A stretch of DNA of 64,000 nucleotides from NCBI GenBank assembly GCA_963806695.1, contig CAWDYT010000002.1, forward strand, positions 3,968 to 67,967. The letters run 5' to 3'. A model generated the notes under the pieces. It made no database searches and was not told the origin of the DNA. It saw nothing but the letters and a program-made list of their open reading frames with translations. A program made the position numbers and the translations under genes. This document shows positions 28,763 through 43,194 of this stretch, one piece after another (within the stretch, counting starts at the first letter, position 1; every line of letters begins with the position of its first letter). Source of the DNA: an uncultured Chloroflexia bacterium (GTDB taxonomy: Bacteria; Chloroflexota; Limnocylindria; QHBO01).

Positions 28763-28919
28763 GCGCTATGGCACAATGCGGAACGAGTTATCCGCTCTGT
28801 TTGAGCGTGAGCTTGCGCCCGTAGCTCAGTGGATCAGAGCAGCTGACTTCGGACTATCCCGGCCGATGCGGTGTAGCCCGAGCGTGGGAGGGCGAGCGTC
28901 GAGCGTCGAGTTATCTGCT
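28763..28919 (+). repeat. Junction J1: tRNA upstream flank + tRNA-Arg 5' half (28815-28853) + conserved arm
   Basis: 39-nt exact match to 43118-43156, then ctatcccggccgatgcggtgtagcccgagcg...gagttatctgct. Confidence 0.95.
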
Positions 28920-29024
28920 GTCTCTGTTGGCGAGAGGTGCAGGCTGGCGGGAGCCTACAGCCGGCACGCCTCGGCGCCGATCCGTTCGCCACGGGATCCC
29001 GCCCTGATTCGCGCCGGATCGGCG

Positions 29025-29264
29025 ATGGTCCCCGACGTCGGCCGCTTCTCGTCCACGCACCATGACTGGTACCGCGCCACGCTGACCAGGCTGTTCGACC
29101 TGCTGGCGCAGGGCACGATCAAGCCCGTCGTGGCCGAGCGGCTGCCGCTCGCCGAGGCGCGCCGGGCACACGAGCTGCTCGAGGCCGGTGGCATCGGCGG
29201 GGAGATCGTCCTCGTCACCGAGGGAGGATCGGTGCTTCGGAATAGCGGCGGCGACTCCACATAG
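29025..29264 (+). pseudogene. 3' fragment of a zinc-type alcohol dehydrogenase / quinone oxidoreductase
   Basis: LFDLLAQGTIKPVVAERLPLAEARRAHELLEAGGIGGEIVLV (MDR C-terminus) with no N-terminus. Confidence 0.7.
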
Positions 29265-29447
29265 CGAAGCCCCGTCGACGTGACATCGAACGCCTGGCGG
29301 GGCCGCAAACCAGCCTGGAGGAGCGGCACTTGCATGCCGTCCGCTCCGGACCGCACCGCTCCCGGTCCCGCCGGAATTCGAGATTCGCGATTCGCTAATC
29401 TCCTGATCGACCTATCGATTGGAATCGGCTTCAGAAGTGCGAGGCAT

Positions 29448-30083
29448 ATGAAGCTCCTCGTCCTTGGCGCAACCGGCGACATTGGCTCGGCGGTCGTGCG
29501 CGCTGCGCTCGCGAACGGCCACGAAGTAGTCGCGTTCGTCCGCTCGCCCGACAAGCTCGGCGAGCTGCGCGACGCCGTCCGCGTCGTCCAGGGCGATCTG
29601 GCCGATGCCGAGGCCATATCTGCGGCCGTGGCAGGACATCACGCGGTCATCAGCGCCGTTGGCTCAAGTCCCGACAAGTCCCAGCTGGACGTTCCCGCGA
29701 ACGCCACGCGACACGTGGTCGCCGCGATGAAGGCCGCCGGTGTCCGGCGGCTGGTCGGGCTAGCCGGCGGAGCCGTCGACGTGCCCGGCGAGAGGAAACC
29801 GATGAGTGGTCGGATCACGACGGCTTTCGTGCGGCTGATGGCCCGGAACGTCGTGGAGGCGAAGCAACGCGAGTTCGAAGTAGTTCGCGCCAGCGGCCTG
29901 GACTGGACAATGGTTCGTCCTCCTCGCGTCGTCCCAGGCGAGCCAACTGGAAGGGTGGATATCGGCGACAAGCTCCACGGATTCCAAGTCGCGAGCGGCG
30001 ATGTCGGTCAGGCAATGGTCTCGTTAGCGACCGGGAATGATTGGCTGCACATGGCGCCCTACGTTTCGGAGCGACGCAGCTAG
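29448..30083 (+). CDS. NAD(P)H-binding oxidoreductase (flavin reductase / BLVRB-like)
   Basis: MKLLVLGATGDIG, LDWTMVRPP. Confidence 0.88.
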   Translation: MKLLVLGATGDIGSAVVRAALANGHEVVAFVRSPDKLGELRDAVRVVQGDLADAEAISAAVAGHHAVISAVGSSPDKSQLDVPANATRHVVAAMKAAGVRRLVGLAGGAVDVPGERKPMSGRITTAFVRLMARNVVEAKQREFEVVRASGLDWTMVRPPRVVPGEPTGRVDIGDKLHGFQVASGDVGQAMVSLATGNDWLHMAPYVSERRS

Positions 30084-30170
30084 ACGCGAAGCGGCTTGGC
30101 CGAACGCCGGCTTGTAGGCCTCGGTGAGAGACAGGGGCCCACAAGGCGGGCGCCAGGGGTGGCACAACGC

Positions 30171-31447
30171 TTACCGCGGACTGGGTGCACTCAGCAGCCG
30201 GATCAGCTCGTAGACGGCGACAGGCTGCGACTTCCCTTTCAGGCCAGGCGACCCCAGCGGTCGAACGACCGCCTGCTCCCGAATGTGGTCGTAGGTGCTG
30301 GCACCGATTACGACGCTCCCTTCGGCGGCGTAGGTTTGCAGGCGCGCCGCTACGTTGGTCGTGTCTCCAATGGCGGCGAAGTTGCGCATTTCGGCACCGC
30401 CGATATTGCCCACCAGTGCTGGGCCGCTGTTGAGGCCGACCCGAAAGTGAGGGCGCGTGCCCCGTCGGGCAGCTCACCCACGGCTTGCTGCATCGCCAGG
30501 GCCGCGCGTGCTGCCCGCAAGGCGTGGTCCGGCTGAGGGTGGGGAGCGTTGAATATGGCCATGAGAGCGTCGCCCATGAACTGCACCACCGTGCCACCCT
30601 CCGTGAAGACGATCGGTACCACCACCCCGAACGCAGCATTCAGCATCGCCACAACCTCGGTGGGCGCTCGGCGTTCGGCGAAGGCCGTATATCCGCGCAG
30701 GTCGGCGAACAGGACCGTCACGTCGACCTCCTCGCCGCCCAGCGCCGCGCGTCGCGGATCCTCGATCAATGCGCTCGCCACCGCCGGCGATAGGTACCGG
30801 TGGAGCAGCTGGTCGACCTGATCACGGAGCGCGCTTACGAGCCGGCCCTGTGCGAAGGCAGCACGTTGCGACAGTTCCAGCGACATCCGCCCACGCAAGC
30901 GGCCACCACCGCGAGGGCGAGGATGAGGACCTGCAGGGGCAATTGCGACGCCAGCCCAAGCGCCAGGGCGAAGACCACGAACAGCACGCAATAGGCACTG
31001 CCCATCACGACCGCGCCGGTGAAGGGGTGCCGCGTGATCGAGAAGCCGAACACGGCGGTGACCATGACGCCGGGTAGCGCGTACACGGCGAAGGTGCTCG
31101 GTGACAGCCGCTAACGCGAGCACCGCGATGCCGGCCGCGAGCTGTTGCCCCATGCCAATCGCGTCGCGCCGGCGCTGGGTCGTCGCCCACCGGCTCACGC
31201 CTGCACTTGCGAACAGCAAGATGATCATGAGGCCCGAGATCAGCCAGGTTTGGCCCGGCGCAACGTCGAGCACCGGAGGCCCGATGAGGGCCACCAGCAC
31301 CCAGGCTCCGACAGCGACGAGACTTGTGGTGCGGAGGCGCCGCACCCCCTCCGCGTGATCCGCGTGCTGGTACGACTCCTCCAGATCCCGGTCCAAGAAG
31401 CGCAGCGTCCAACGGTCGCGCCGGTCCCAGCCAGCGGGAAAGATCAC
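30171..31447 (-). CDS. Membrane class III adenylate/guanylate cyclase (frameshifts)
   Basis: TVLFADLRGYT, QFMGDALMAIF, GDTTNVAARLQ, LKGKSQPVAVY; N-terminal TMs. Confidence 0.85.
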
Positions 31448-41022: not shown

Positions 41023-41189
41023 GTCGCCCTCCTGAGCCCAAGCGTCTTAACCCAACGCCGCTTACGAAGCGTTCGCCACCGTTCACCCACTGCAACGTGG
41101 AGATCCTGGAAGTTCGATGTTGGGGATCACTGCCACCACGCCGCTTGGTCGGGACGGAATCTGTTGACATGCCGGACGTCACCTCGCGT

Positions 41190-42844
41190 TCGGCGAGATA
41201 CTCGTGCACCCGACGGATCACTGTTGAACCCTCACCGACGGCAGCGGCTACGCGCTTCAGTCAGCCACCCCGAACGTCGCCTACCGCGAAGACGCCGGGC
41301 ACACTCGTTTCAAGGGCGGACGGTGGTCGGGCAGCCCCGACTTTCGGCCCTACCGAACGGAGTCGGTCAGGACGTATCCCCGATCGTCGCGCTCGATGTC
41401 GGCCGGCAGCCAACCGGTGCGTGGCGAAGCACCGATCATGATGAAGACGGCCGCGGCGGGGACTGCCTCCGTGTGATTGGCGGCGCCGTCGTGGATGGTC
41501 AGGCTGCGGAGGCGGAAGTCACCGGCCCCCTCGACAACCACGGTGTTCAGGCGGATCGCGATGTTGTCGCGGGCCTCGAGGTCGCGGACCAGGTAGTCGG
41601 ACATCTCGGTCAGCGACGGTCCCCGAACCAATACCGTGACGCGGGCGGCGAACCGGCTGAGATAAAGGGCTGCTTGGCCGGCCGAGTTGGCGCCGCCTAC
41701 CACGTATACGTCCTCGTCAACCATGCCGGGAGCTCCACGCCGGCGCCATAGAAGACGCCGCGGCCGACGAGTGCCTCGAGGCTGTCGATGCCGATGCGCC
41801 GGTAGCTGACGCCCGTTGCCAGGACGATCGCTCGGCTGCGGACTTCGGAGCCGTCATCGAGTACCAGCACGCGAGGATCCGGCTCCACGAGTAGGCCGCT
41901 GTAGCGGCGCGGCCGATGAGAAACCGAGCGCCGAGGATCCAGGCCTGGAGATAGGCCCGGTTGGTCAGCTCGGCGCCACTCAGCCCGCGCGGGAAACCGA
42001 GGTAGTTGCGGATCCGCGAGCTGGTACCGGCCTGACCGCCGAGCGCCTCGTTCTCGAGTACCAGCACCCTGAGGCCCTCGGATGCGCCATAGACGGCTGC
42101 TGCCAGACCGGCTGGGCCCGATCCTACGATGGTGACGTCGAAGACCTCAGAGCCGGGATCCGTATTCACGCCCAGAGCGTCTGCTACGTCCGCTGGAGTT
42201 GGCTTTGACAGCACTCGGCCGTTGAAGAGGACCGCGACCGGTAGAGGGGCCGGGAGCCCGCTCCTCTCCAACAGCCCGCGGCCTTCGTCGCTGTCGGCAT
42301 CGTAGTAGCGGAACGGGACGTTGCTGCGCTGCAGAGCATCTTGCAGCCCGTGGGTGTACGGGTCCCACCGGTCGCCCACGATGCTCACCGCTTCGAACGG
42401 TGGCCGGTGGCTGCGATCCCACTCGTCCAGGAGTTCGGTGACGGCATGGCAGAACTGCTCATCGGCATCGCGCCAAGGGCGGTCGATGTAGGTGTCGATC
42501 TGTCCCAGCGCGGATGCCTTGATGATCGAGTCGGCTGTCGAGCGATCACCCCAGTTGATCAGCAGCGCCCGTTTCGCGTCGCGGTGGATCGAGCTCACCC
42601 GCGCCAGGAGTTCGGTGCCGGTCATGTCGGGCATCGATTGGTTAGCCAGGACCAGCGCGACGTCGGTGCCGTTGAGACGCAGCTCGTCGAGCGTCTTCAA
42701 GGCCTTCTGCGGAGAGGCCGGAGTGAGGACTTCGTAGTCCGCGCCGAACCTGCGCTCCAGGATGGTGCGAAGTCGCGCGCCGGAATCCGCCTCATCGTCC
42801 ACCGCGACGATCGCGGCCGGCTCGGTTGGAGGTTTGCTGCTCAT
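41190..42844 (-). pseudogene. Receiver domain + thioredoxin-reductase-like FAD oxidoreductase (frameshifts and an in-frame TGA)
   Basis: IVAVDDE receiver; GSGPAGLAAAVYGASEGL, GGQAGTSSRIRNYLGFP, GGANSAGQAA, GDVRGG*LKRVAAAVGEG. Confidence 0.75.
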
Positions 42845-42899
42845 GTGGCTCGTATCGCGGCCCGGGGTCGGTGGGTTGCTGCTTCATGATAAGCCCGGC

Positions 42900-43047
42900 A
42901 CCTTCACCGACCGGTGTGCAGAACTGGATCATGCTGCCCGAGCCGTTCTTCGACCCGTTGCGGCAGGAACCGCGATTTCGGAACGTCATGCGGCGACTTG
43001 GGTTGCCGGAATGGACGCCGCCCGCAGGAGGCCTGCCGCATCAGTGA
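42900..43047 (+). pseudogene. 3' fragment resembling the C-terminal tail of TPR-containing proteins
   Basis: EPFFDPLRQEPRFRNVMRRLGLP, ending just before the tRNA flank. Confidence 0.55.
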
Positions 43048-43060
43048 GACCGGGTCATCC

Positions 43061-43117
43061 GAGCGCTGTGGCACAATGCTGGCGACGAGTTATCCGCTCA
43101 GTTTGAGCGTGAAATCG
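43061..43117 (+). promoter_or_regulatory. Conserved tRNA upstream flank with putative extended -10 (TGGCACAAT), GAGTTATCCGCT box and CGCTC/GAGCG palindrome
   Basis: Shared with junctions J1-J6 (degenerate in J2; partial in J6). Confidence 0.6.
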
Positions 43118-43194
43118 GCGCCCGTAGCTCAGTGGATCAGAGCAGCTGACTTCGGATCAGCAGGTCGGGAGTTCGAATCTCTCCGGGCGCGCCA
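43118..43194 (+). tRNA. tRNA-Arg, anticodon TCG, with encoded CCA
   Basis: Acceptor GCGCCCG/CGGGCGC, D arm GCTC/GAGC with A20, anticodon arm GCTGA-CTTCGGA-TCAGC, T loop TTCGAAT, 77 nt. Confidence 0.96.

Follow-up and report, generated by a model that had tools for sequence, protein, structure and literature searches.

A probable tandem array of non-autonomous integrative cassettes at a tRNA-Arg gene of Candidatus Limnocylindria

We analysed a 64,000-nt stretch of DNA (contig CAWDYT010000002.1; hereafter the window) from the genome of an uncultured Chloroflexota bacterium of the class Candidatus (Ca.) Limnocylindria, in which the only tRNA gene, tRNA-Arg(UCG), is preceded by a series of same-strand copies of its own 5′ half that alternate with unrelated genes. 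The region is best explained as a tandem array of six non-autonomous integrative cassettes, one of them with a decayed junction, at this single tRNA gene. We consider it likely that the array arose as 5′-type elements integrated site-specifically one after another, in or next to the anticodon loop, leaving the newest unit nearest the tRNA, and that the units, which resemble cis-mobilizable elements (CIMEs), were mobilized in trans. Coordinates are those of the window; G-numbers denote genomes (G000 being the window's own) and L-numbers denote loci from genome contigs or metagenomes.

A tRNA gene preceded by copies of its 5′ half

The sole tRNA gene of the window (G+C content 68%) is tRNA-Arg(TCG) at 43118–43194 on the + strand, as identified by ARAGORN and by an Rfam search that likewise returned tRNA only. 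A repeat search and direct reading located its first 39 nt again on the same strand at 28815, 33259, 35501, 38782 and 40335, with 0, 2, 1, 0 and 0 mismatches, respectively. At each of these five junctions, a flank of about 55 nt similar to that upstream of the tRNA leads into tRNA nucleotides 1–39, ending in CTTCGGA, and then into a common arm of about 72 nt (CTATCCCGGCCGATGCGCTGTAGCCCGAGCG...CGAGTTATCYGCT). A further copy at 31703 is decayed, with a diverged flank, a tRNA half that stops after about 31 nt, and no arm. The starts of successive copies, up to the tRNA itself, are 2888, 1556, 2242, 3281, 1553 and 2783 nt apart. The layout is as follows:

28763–28926 (+): Junction 1; E-type flank 28763–28814, tRNA half 28815–28853 (39/39), arm 28854–28926
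31651–31733 (+): decayed junction; diverged flank and truncated tRNA half (about 31 nt), no arm
33208–33371 (+): Junction 3; flank 33208–33258, tRNA half 33259–33297 (2 mismatches), arm 33298–33371
35449–35611 (+): Junction 4; flank, tRNA half 35501–35539 (1 mismatch), arm 35540–35611
38727–38892 (+): Junction 5; flank, tRNA half 38782–38820 (39/39), arm 38821–38892
40283–40446 (+): Junction 6; hybrid flank (that of the adenosine deaminase cassette), tRNA half 40335–40373 (39/39), arm 40374–40446
43065–43117 (+): E-type flank of the intact tRNA, containing GCGCTGTGGCACAATGC, CGAGTTATCCGCTC and a small hairpin, CGCTC..GAGCG
43118–43194 (+): intact tRNA-Arg(TCG), the proposed attachment site; all junctions break after CTTCGGA (nt 39)

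An initial annotation made from the letters alone had described the tRNA with its same-strand half copies, the five copies of exactly 39 nt running through CTTCGGA into one shared arm, and the truncation at 31703. ARAGORN, the repeat search and profile searches bear out all three, and the six spacings that it gave follow from the confirmed coordinates. A profile of tRNA half plus arm recovered the five junctions with E values of 1e-31 to 1e-35 and nothing further in the window; it found no additional decayed junctions left of 28763. A 34-nt pattern spanning the joint matched the window four times with at most one mismatch, a variant of it matched the copy at 33259, where a 1-nt insertion lies close to the start of the arm, and the pattern had 0 matches in 100 dinucleotide shuffles. 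By BLAST and an arm-only profile, the arm is confined to the array locus in the window's genome, which is 57% complete; a miniature inverted-repeat transposable element or other dispersed repeat was rejected on this ground. Positions 1–20000 of the window map to scattered places in relatives, and no ancestral left boundary of the array could be defined.

Arrays at the same tRNA vary across the lineage

Relatives that share the junction belong, by their record titles, to Chloroflexota / Ca. Limnocylindria. Of 41 related genomes, 37 gave a match to a 179-nt junction query, in many cases over the tRNA alone; matches extended through the arm in 10 of 24 same-genus relatives. (Tallies from this and the 301-, 63- and 176-genome surveys below include the unpublished genomes G006, G123, G183, G317 and G367; no claim about a named genome depends on these alone.) In every fetched array with an intact tRNA, the junctions lie upstream of tRNA-Arg(TCG) and on its strand; one array, in G009:C6, runs to the contig end without an intact tRNA. 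Junction copies per array were as follows:

G015, G009:C5, G042, G044 and G045: 1 each
G020 and G021: 3 each
G043: 4
G008: 4–5
G041: 16, over 84.6 kb

No junction occurred within the 7–8 kb fetched upstream of the intact tRNA in G013, G002 and G016; we do not call G013 empty, because a tRNA half sits at a contig end elsewhere in that genome. An exact-pattern scan found 51 stretches in genome_contigs and at least 119 in metagenome_contigs. The junction pattern had 0 matches in viral_contigs, and a phage origin was rejected. Array-bearing assemblies number in the dozens, are independent of one another and include contigs of 0.8–2.2 Mb, indicating that the architecture is a lineage-wide feature rather than a peculiarity or artefact of one assembly.

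Downstream of the tRNA, synteny is preserved throughout the genus, at 72–88% nucleotide identity, and the cargo of the window's array had no nucleotide homologue in the other arrays fetched. The number and content of cassettes differ between relatives, with breakpoints at CTTCGGA, which is what the initial annotation had anticipated for cassettes gained and lost at this site.

An adenosine deaminase cassette in two lineages

The clearest case of a moving unit is the adenosine deaminase (ADA) cassette of the window (unit 38782–40373), which matches a cassette of L079 (= G046:C19) with 93.8% identity over 1674 nt, the two ADA open reading frames (ORFs) being 96.8% identical and the two gene copies differing by 4 gaps. 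Core genes of the window's genome and G046 are 68–78% identical (four segments). In 50-nt windows, identity to L079 is around 0.3–0.4 (background) left of the cassette and 0.68 in the preceding flank, jumps to 0.9–1.0 at 38782, where the tRNA half starts, and returns to background right after the core at 40373. The cassette (1.55 kb) lacks an integrase in both lineages. Judged from sequence, this is one clear inter-lineage transfer of an integrase-less cassette.

The position of the ADA cassette differs between the two arrays. In L079, its distinctive flank and tRNA half are fused to the 3′ half of the tRNA, making it the tRNA-proximal unit; in the window, they are fused to the arm of cassette 6, and the E-type flank and half of cassette 6 complete the tRNA. 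The ADA cassette is thus displaced by exactly one unit, the product expected of serial insertion at the anticodon loop into an L079-like tRNA. Among 13 homologous cassette pairs, we analysed the 8 with at least 55% coverage: the neighbours were unrelated on both sides in 4 (one at 98% identity), differed on the only assessable side in 1, shared the same strain context in 2 and were not assessable in 1. A unit of the form arm, cargo, flank and tRNA 5′ half, inserted at the anticodon loop of a restored tRNA, had been proposed from the window alone; this arrangement fits the ADA displacement, the CTTCGGA breakpoints and the unrelated neighbours.

Junctions share sharply bounded cis sequences

After removal of 22 redundant loci, our collection comprised 167 sequences with 172 unique junctions and 84 complete cassettes that start with the canonical arm. 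At most positions of the tRNA half and arm, conservation across the 172 junctions is at least 90%, and it breaks off sharply after CGAGTTATCYGCT(N)TC. The pattern used to fish for contigs fixed the first 30 nt of the joint and part of the arm, which inflates the apparent conservation and would miss diverged arms. Identity to the tRNA ends exactly after CTTCGGA in the five window copies and in the 172 unique junctions. On the other side, the conservation of 85 unique E-type flanks starts sharply about 60 nt upstream of the tRNA, at GCGCTGTGGCACAATG. Junction-to-junction intervals (n = 114) have a median of 2.8 kb and a 10th–90th percentile range of 1.5–6.7 kb, and arm-to-arm units range from about 1.3 to 17 kb.

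The arm and flank have two direct motifs in common, GCGCTGTRGCMC and CGAGTTATCYGCT, and the arm profile weakly matches flanks. The resulting order of motif pair, tRNA half, core and motif pair may correspond to arm-type sites on either side of an attP core. Flanks themselves are heterogeneous: among the 172, 67 are full E-type, 24 partial E-type, 11 overlie integrase remnants, 1 is of type N1 and 69 are 'other', many of the last having a TAGAAT-like box just upstream of the tRNA. Such heterogeneity fits the expectation that each incoming unit must bring a promoter for the tRNA. Read by eye, the flank hairpin shows a compensatory change between subtypes (CGCTC..GAGCG versus GTGCTC..GAGCAC). No conserved fold was found in half plus arm, for which RNAalifold on the 172 unique sequences gave two trivial stems (-0.9 kcal/mol) and no covariation. 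A reading of the junction as an RNA gene was rejected, Rfam having returned tRNA only and the consensus fold of half plus arm being unsupported.

Cognate integrases occur at the same site

None of the window's six units contains a recombinase gene recognizable by Pfam, and tblastn with five tyrosine-recombinase queries against the 167 sequences found none within any of the 84 canonical cassettes. The same search did find a full integrase in G038, from another family of the class, inside a 2.9-kb element with the same breakpoint; a match downstream of the tRNA in L079; and short N-terminal integrase remnants directly upstream of the flank in L136, L145, L106 and L043.

Relatives of the G038 integrase are present at E ≤ 1e-30 in 79 of 301 genomes of the class and in 4 of 33 of the window's genus. 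At 24 of the 30 best loci (L223–L252, two of which, L234 and L245, come from unpublished genomes), the integrase and the 5′ end of a tRNA (Arg, Lys, Gly, His, Pro or Met) are about 100–200 nt apart, in divergent orientation; another 4 have the classic 3′ arrangement and 2 have no tRNA. 'Reversed' tRNA integration thus seems to be the rule for this family; displaced 5′ fragments at integrase loci were examined for tRNA-Arg only.

Using the L145 remnant as a query over 176 genomes of the family, we found the best match in G065 (same genus, 96% complete), with 74% identity over residues 28–122 of the remnant ORF. The G065 integrase is a 334-aa ORF that starts 72 nt upstream of the intact tRNA-Arg(TCG) and is divergent from it, and the canonical arm is also found on another contig of that genome. 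G054 has a 2.6-kb element consisting of the arm, one Kelch-repeat gene and a 314-aa integrase with both Pfam domains. G074 has five junctions; its tRNA-proximal unit, of 11.9 kb, contains an intact integrase and the neighbouring unit a truncated one, and the other units measure 0.86–3.4 kb. An integrase also lies mid-array in G051, and one with two stops is present in G088. The occurrence of integrases at the same tRNA with the same layout indicates that autonomous and non-autonomous members share the site and its cis layout.

Outside the arrays, the window's genome has two genes with the tyrosine-recombinase domain PF00589, located 162 and 198 kb from the tRNA, of which one passes the XerD equivalog cut-off and the other has XerC as its best match. 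The same two syntenic Xer-like genes, intact or fragmented, are present in all 11 array-bearing genomes examined. Beyond these, PF00589 was matched only three times in such genomes, twice weakly and below threshold and once on another contig of G043, in no case within an array; no serine recombinase was found in any of five genomes examined. The integrases of the elements share the size and the domain composition of the Xer-like pair.

Two paralogous integrases (47% identical, on opposite strands) lie just downstream of tRNA-Arg(TCG) in L222:16787–19074 (G046:C19) and G221:C106. We considered and rejected this pair, found in few of 63 genus genomes, as the integrase of the array: it has the classic 3′-type arrangement and also occurs at tRNA-Gln in G065 and G005. 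It seems to be a separate element on the other side of the same tRNA, which would then be targeted from both sides. Elsewhere in the window's genome, the 5′ part of tRNA-Met(CAT) is copied 4.6 kb upstream of the gene (G000:C2:178376 and 183006) and the 3′ part of tRNA-Leu(CAA) 3 kb from its gene (G000:C1:97246 and 100264); we regard these as further small islets at tRNAs, in a genome in which no integrase was found.

Cassette cargo and other features

The cargo of the six cassettes, as assigned with Pfam, is as follows:

28927–31650: cassette 1; NAD_binding_10 protein 29280–30083 (+), Guanylate_cyc-domain protein 30350–31447 (−)
31734–33207: cassette 2; FAD-dependent oxidoreductase (DAO) 31784–33028 (+)
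33372–35448: cassette 3; PD40 beta-propeller protein 33511–34713 (−), sigma-70 region 2 protein 34470–35321 (−)
35612–38726: cassette 4; ECF sigma factor 37954–38550 (−), repeat-rich 360-aa protein 36875–37957 (−), and two ORFs without a Pfam match, 36225–36752 (−) and 35680–36051 (−)
38893–40282: cassette 5; adenosine deaminase (A_deaminase) 39050–40165 (−)
40447–43064: cassette 6, nearest the tRNA; DUF2269 protein 40568–41221 (−) and a Response_reg plus Pyr_redox protein (FAD/pyridine-nucleotide oxidoreductase) split over 41717–42844 and 41350–41724 (−)

Most of the names first given to these genes stand, being matched by NAD_binding_10, Guanylate_cyc, DAO, PD40, Sigma70_r2, ECF, A_deaminase, DUF2269, Response_reg and Pyr_redox; the exceptions are a 'VOC' protein (35680–36051) and a second anti-sigma factor (36875–37957), neither of which has a Pfam match. 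Directly after the first arm, at about 29061–29214, lies a C-terminal fragment of a zinc-type dehydrogenase (ADH_zinc_N_2, profile positions 85–134 of 134), so that cassette 1 starts with a truncated gene. Positions 36225–37957 of cassette 4 contain direct repeats (251 nt at 82% identity, plus families of 55–56 nt spaced 384–668 nt apart) that fall within the 360-aa and 175-aa ORFs, both without a Pfam match, and probably reflect a repeat (propeller-like) protein. Several genes are split over overlapping frames, namely the receiver-oxidoreductase (41350–41724/41717–42844), an amino-acid permease (44211–44933/45011–45960) and an ABC ATPase (27513–27896); these are either assembly frameshift errors or pseudogenes.

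Across seven arrays, 165 ORFs called with a crude filter on third-position G+C content (GC3) divide into 83 on the tRNA strand and 82 on the opposite strand. The 150 of these that were scanned represent 141 Pfam families; none of the top 25 is of a mobility gene, and these 25 consist of oxidoreductases and hydrolases, transporters, sigma factors, response regulators and MarR/PadR/IclR regulators.

Downstream of the window's tRNA are genes for a CHRD protein, a permease and an alpha-amylase. The permease segment (44140–46440) is present in G008, G009, G020, G021 and G024 and absent from the same place in G013, G016 and G019, a distribution that is probably just phylogeny. Far to the left of the array, a 3.3-kb segment (9871–13163) is 91% identical to G008:C10:126152–129442, with the flanking genes of the two genomes at about 78%; it is possibly another recently exchanged segment, and it has no recognizable junction.

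Serial insertion and its alternatives

In the mechanism we favour, each element would carry an attP made of the promoter-bearing flank and 5′ half of the tRNA on one side of the crossover and the conserved arm of about 72 nt on the other, an example of the rare 'reversed' (5′-type) tRNA integration that we propose for this cassette family. Recombination between the circular element and the tRNA, in or immediately beside the anticodon loop, would be catalysed by a tyrosine integrase of the family. The tRNA's 3′ half would thereby acquire the promoter and 5′ half of the arriving unit, and those that it had before would be pushed upstream, joined to the incoming arm; the flank at 43065–43117 would in this way have been brought in by cassette 6. 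Repeated insertion would stack cassettes with the newest beside the tRNA, and the array would grow away from the tRNA because insertion takes place in the anticodon loop of the restored gene. Units with about 180 bp of cis sequence and no integrase would be served in trans by rare autonomous relatives, and RecA-type recombination between near-identical junctions may aid gain, loss and exchange. The precise crossover point, the circular intermediate and the catalyst acting in integrase-free genomes are conjectural parts of this scheme.

Several observations sit uneasily with it. A terminal-overlap check found no circular contig among 148 L loci from genome contigs and metagenomes, and neither circular forms nor excision products nor empty-site alleles within one population were observed. 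Because homologous recombination within the shared 39–100 nt gives the same products, the recent moves need not have been catalysed site-specifically. Non-E, 'native-like' flanks occur mid-array, for example 7 of 16 in G041. A module of about 590 bp, comprising the end of an ICMT/PEMT-like membrane methyltransferase gene and its own N1 tRNA flank, recurs at 85–94% identity (the G045 array also bears it); its position is next to the intact tRNA in G021, at the left end of the array in G008 and G019, and in the middle of the array in G041. These flanks and the shifting module make a rule of always inserting at the intact tRNA insufficient. Other genera of the family keep the layout but have visibly diverged arms. 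The core sequences CTATC (arm side) and GCTGA (anticodon-stem side) do not form an inverted repeat, which is unusual for a tyrosine-recombinase core. Finally, the window's genome may hold a resident integrase, since it is only 57% complete.

The alternative that comes closest is exchange of cassettes by RecA-type homologous recombination between the near-identical junctions of about 110–180 bp, with no site-specific enzyme, which could follow transfer by transformation, vesicles or phage. We think this rather unlikely. Junctions are 85–95% identical over about 170 nt, the products would be the same as those of a site-specific reaction, and most array-bearing genomes lack a candidate integrase; yet homologous exchange leaves unexplained both the sharp-edged conservation of arm and flank and the breakpoint in the anticodon loop, where only 39 nt are common when flanks differ, and cognate integrases exist at the same site. 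It is also unlikely, somewhat more so, that the array is an immobile graveyard of units that arrived autonomous and lost their integrases later. Integrase N-terminal remnants beside some flanks (11 of 172 unique flanks bear them), the intact and truncated integrases in successive units of G074, and the tendency of tRNA-distal junctions to decay (31703 in the window, the leftmost in G008 and G041) are what such loss would leave behind. However, units of 0.86–1.55 kb are too small to have held cargo and an integrase of about 1 kb, the ADA cassette is 94–97% identical across lineages with 68–78% core identity and integrase-less in both, conserved cis ends have sharp common boundaries around unrelated cargo, and no canonical cassette of the first 167 sequences contains a full integrase. 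The very small size of some units, the transfer of the ADA unit and the sharpness of the conserved ends disfavour pure accretion of fossils.

Hijacking of the host XerC/XerD recombinases, with the junction as a dif-like site in the manner of integrative mobile elements exploiting Xer (IMEX) or pdif modules, appears very improbable. In the array-bearing genomes examined, no tyrosine-recombinase match other than the Xer-like pair is strong; the pair is syntenic, at about 160 and 200 kb from the tRNA, and the element integrases match it in size and domain make-up. Against this, no dif-like 11-6-11 site or palindrome was recognized by eye in the junction, and dedicated integrases of the element family exist. 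A search with an inner dif motif, which may differ from the dif of this genus, found nothing in the window's genome and two unrelated sites in one of five relatives. We found no positive evidence for such hijacking. That the region is a true integron, or an assembly artefact caused by repeats, is scarcely credible. It does have the look of a cassette array with a repeated site, and many metagenome contigs break at junctions, with a locus end no more than 250 nt away from 51 of 147 of them, but there is no IntI and no folded attC-like site, genes lie 83 on one strand versus 82 on the other, and the architecture recurs in dozens of independent assemblies with contigs up to 2.2 Mb.

Beyond serial insertion as such, we entertain a bolder version only tentatively: a working integron-like capture system independent of integrons, with a single essential tRNA gene as its platform and 1–3-gene cassettes whose attP of about 180 bp is moved in trans. 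Cassettes with an attP of promoter flank, tRNA 5′ half and arm would circulate through this class of soil bacteria, a rare cognate integrase, present in about 1 in 60 genomes of the genus or on an unbinned helper, would insert and excise them, and every new cassette would re-promote the tRNA.

Relation to described systems

The array was at first labelled 'integron-like', a label that fails on the integrase, the folded attC-like site and common gene orientation. No IntI lies next to the array, and the PF00589 genes of the window's genome score 82–135 bits against integron-integrase NCBIfam models with cut-offs of 265–435. Integron cassettes are mostly promoterless and co-oriented; here cassettes carry sigma factors and other regulators and have genes in both orientations. 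The likeness to integrons lies in a fixed platform site, many small cassettes and a conserved site around variable cargo; in integrons the integrase acts in trans on the cassettes. The present arrays differ in having no attC hairpin and instead double-stranded attP-like sites of about 180 bp, with a functional tRNA gene as the platform.

The array has the usual marks of a tRNA island, in the window and in relatives: the intact gene is restored, a displaced tRNA fragment lies at the distal end in direct orientation, and the breakpoint is at the canonical anticodon-loop sublocation, from which the position of strand exchange is deduced. An integrase within each element, a further mark of such islands, occurs in none of the 6 window units and none of the 84 canonical cassettes; it is found in G065, G054, G074 and G038. 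The units also appear, on their features, to be CIMEs, with att-like ends on both sides, no mobility genes and autonomous relatives at the same tRNA. The array is best classed with cis-mobilizable elements that accrete in tandem at a tRNA gene, as a variant of that kind, and not as an integron; distinctive are its 5′-type geometry, the near-total absence of integrases, the regular cis ends of about 180 bp and arrays of up to 16 units.

CIMEs, and their accretion at the att sites of integrative and conjugative or integrative and mobilizable elements (ICEs and IMEs), were reportedly described by Pavlovic et al. in 2004. As here, they have functional-looking att sites, lack recombination genes and stand in tandem with autonomous relatives; they are usually single units beside an ICE, whereas here 5–16 small units of 1–3 genes occur and the autonomous partner is absent from most genomes. 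We met no description of arrays of 5–16 small units without an autonomous partner in the CIME literature searched.

'Reversed-orientation' integration, from the 5′ side of the tRNA, was reportedly set out by Zhao and Williams in 2002. A 5′-type element must supply a promoter, because it replaces the 5′ part of the tRNA gene. Recombination with the 5′ part of tRNA genes has been described as 'considerably less frequent' than with the 3′ part, and tyrosine-recombinase elements can form arrays by re-using a site (PMC6563490). Islander lists 159 islands with a 5′ fragment versus 3760 with a 3′ fragment, and only 4 arrays of at least three islands, with an integrase required in every tandem member (PMC4383910). 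The 5′-side tRNA islands known from these texts are single and integrase-bearing, whereas here we see arrays of mostly integrase-less units.

Within the same phylum, Dehalococcoides carries islands at ssrA, 16 with a serine-recombinase module and 15 of 31 without, the latter suggested to be cis-mobilizable (McMurdie et al. 2011, PMC3146451). As here, they stand in tandem at one small-RNA gene and have strain-specific cargo, and every island has at its borders a direct repeat of that gene with a conserved motif next to it; they differ in using the 3′ end of tmRNA, the serine recombinase DsiB and a 20-bp repeat, and in being larger (PMC3146451). In the present arrays, the target is the 5′ side of a tRNA, the enzyme is a tyrosine integrase that nearly all units lack, and the repeat consists of a 39-nt half with about 130 nt of flank and arm. 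Tycheposons of Prochlorococcus, compared by description only, likewise push older elements inward into tRNA-anchored islands through successive integrations, leaving partial tRNAs and fragmented integrases in streamlined genomes without other mobile elements, with ecologically useful cargo; they differ in having their own integrase and often replication genes, and they are rare, at 1–2 per genome, and in tandem in few genomes (bioRxiv 10.1101/2020.12.28.424599).

The initial annotation did not recognize the array as a described system. Its kind is already in print, as tandem re-use of tRNA/tmRNA sites, integrase-less array members and 5′-side integration (PMC3146451, PMC4383910, PMC6563490 and bioRxiv 10.1101/2020.12.28.424599). 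The main texts searched, with the supplementary examples of tycheposons and Islander lying outside the comparison, contained no arrays of the present form and nothing on mobile elements of Limnocylindria.

Significance

Ca. Limnocylindria are abundant, uncultured Chloroflexota of soil and freshwater with small genomes, and the window's genus is almost without recognizable mobile-element genes. In this genus, the tRNA-Arg locus appears to be the main visible entry point for accessory genes, which include oxidoreductases and hydrolases as well as transporters, regulators and sigma/anti-sigma pairs. Island finders that demand an integrase for each island, as the Islander rules do (PMC4383910), overlook such arrays, which reach 16 units and 85 kb and consist of integrase-less cassettes with sharply delimited cis sites. 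If mobilization in trans is true, the arrays would represent a second natural cassette-array logic beside integrons and a compact integration system, consisting of an attP/attB pair of about 0.3 kb and an integrase of about 320 aa, in which the tRNA target is regenerated from the 5′ side. The array would be a little-known way for bacteria to collect accessory genes.

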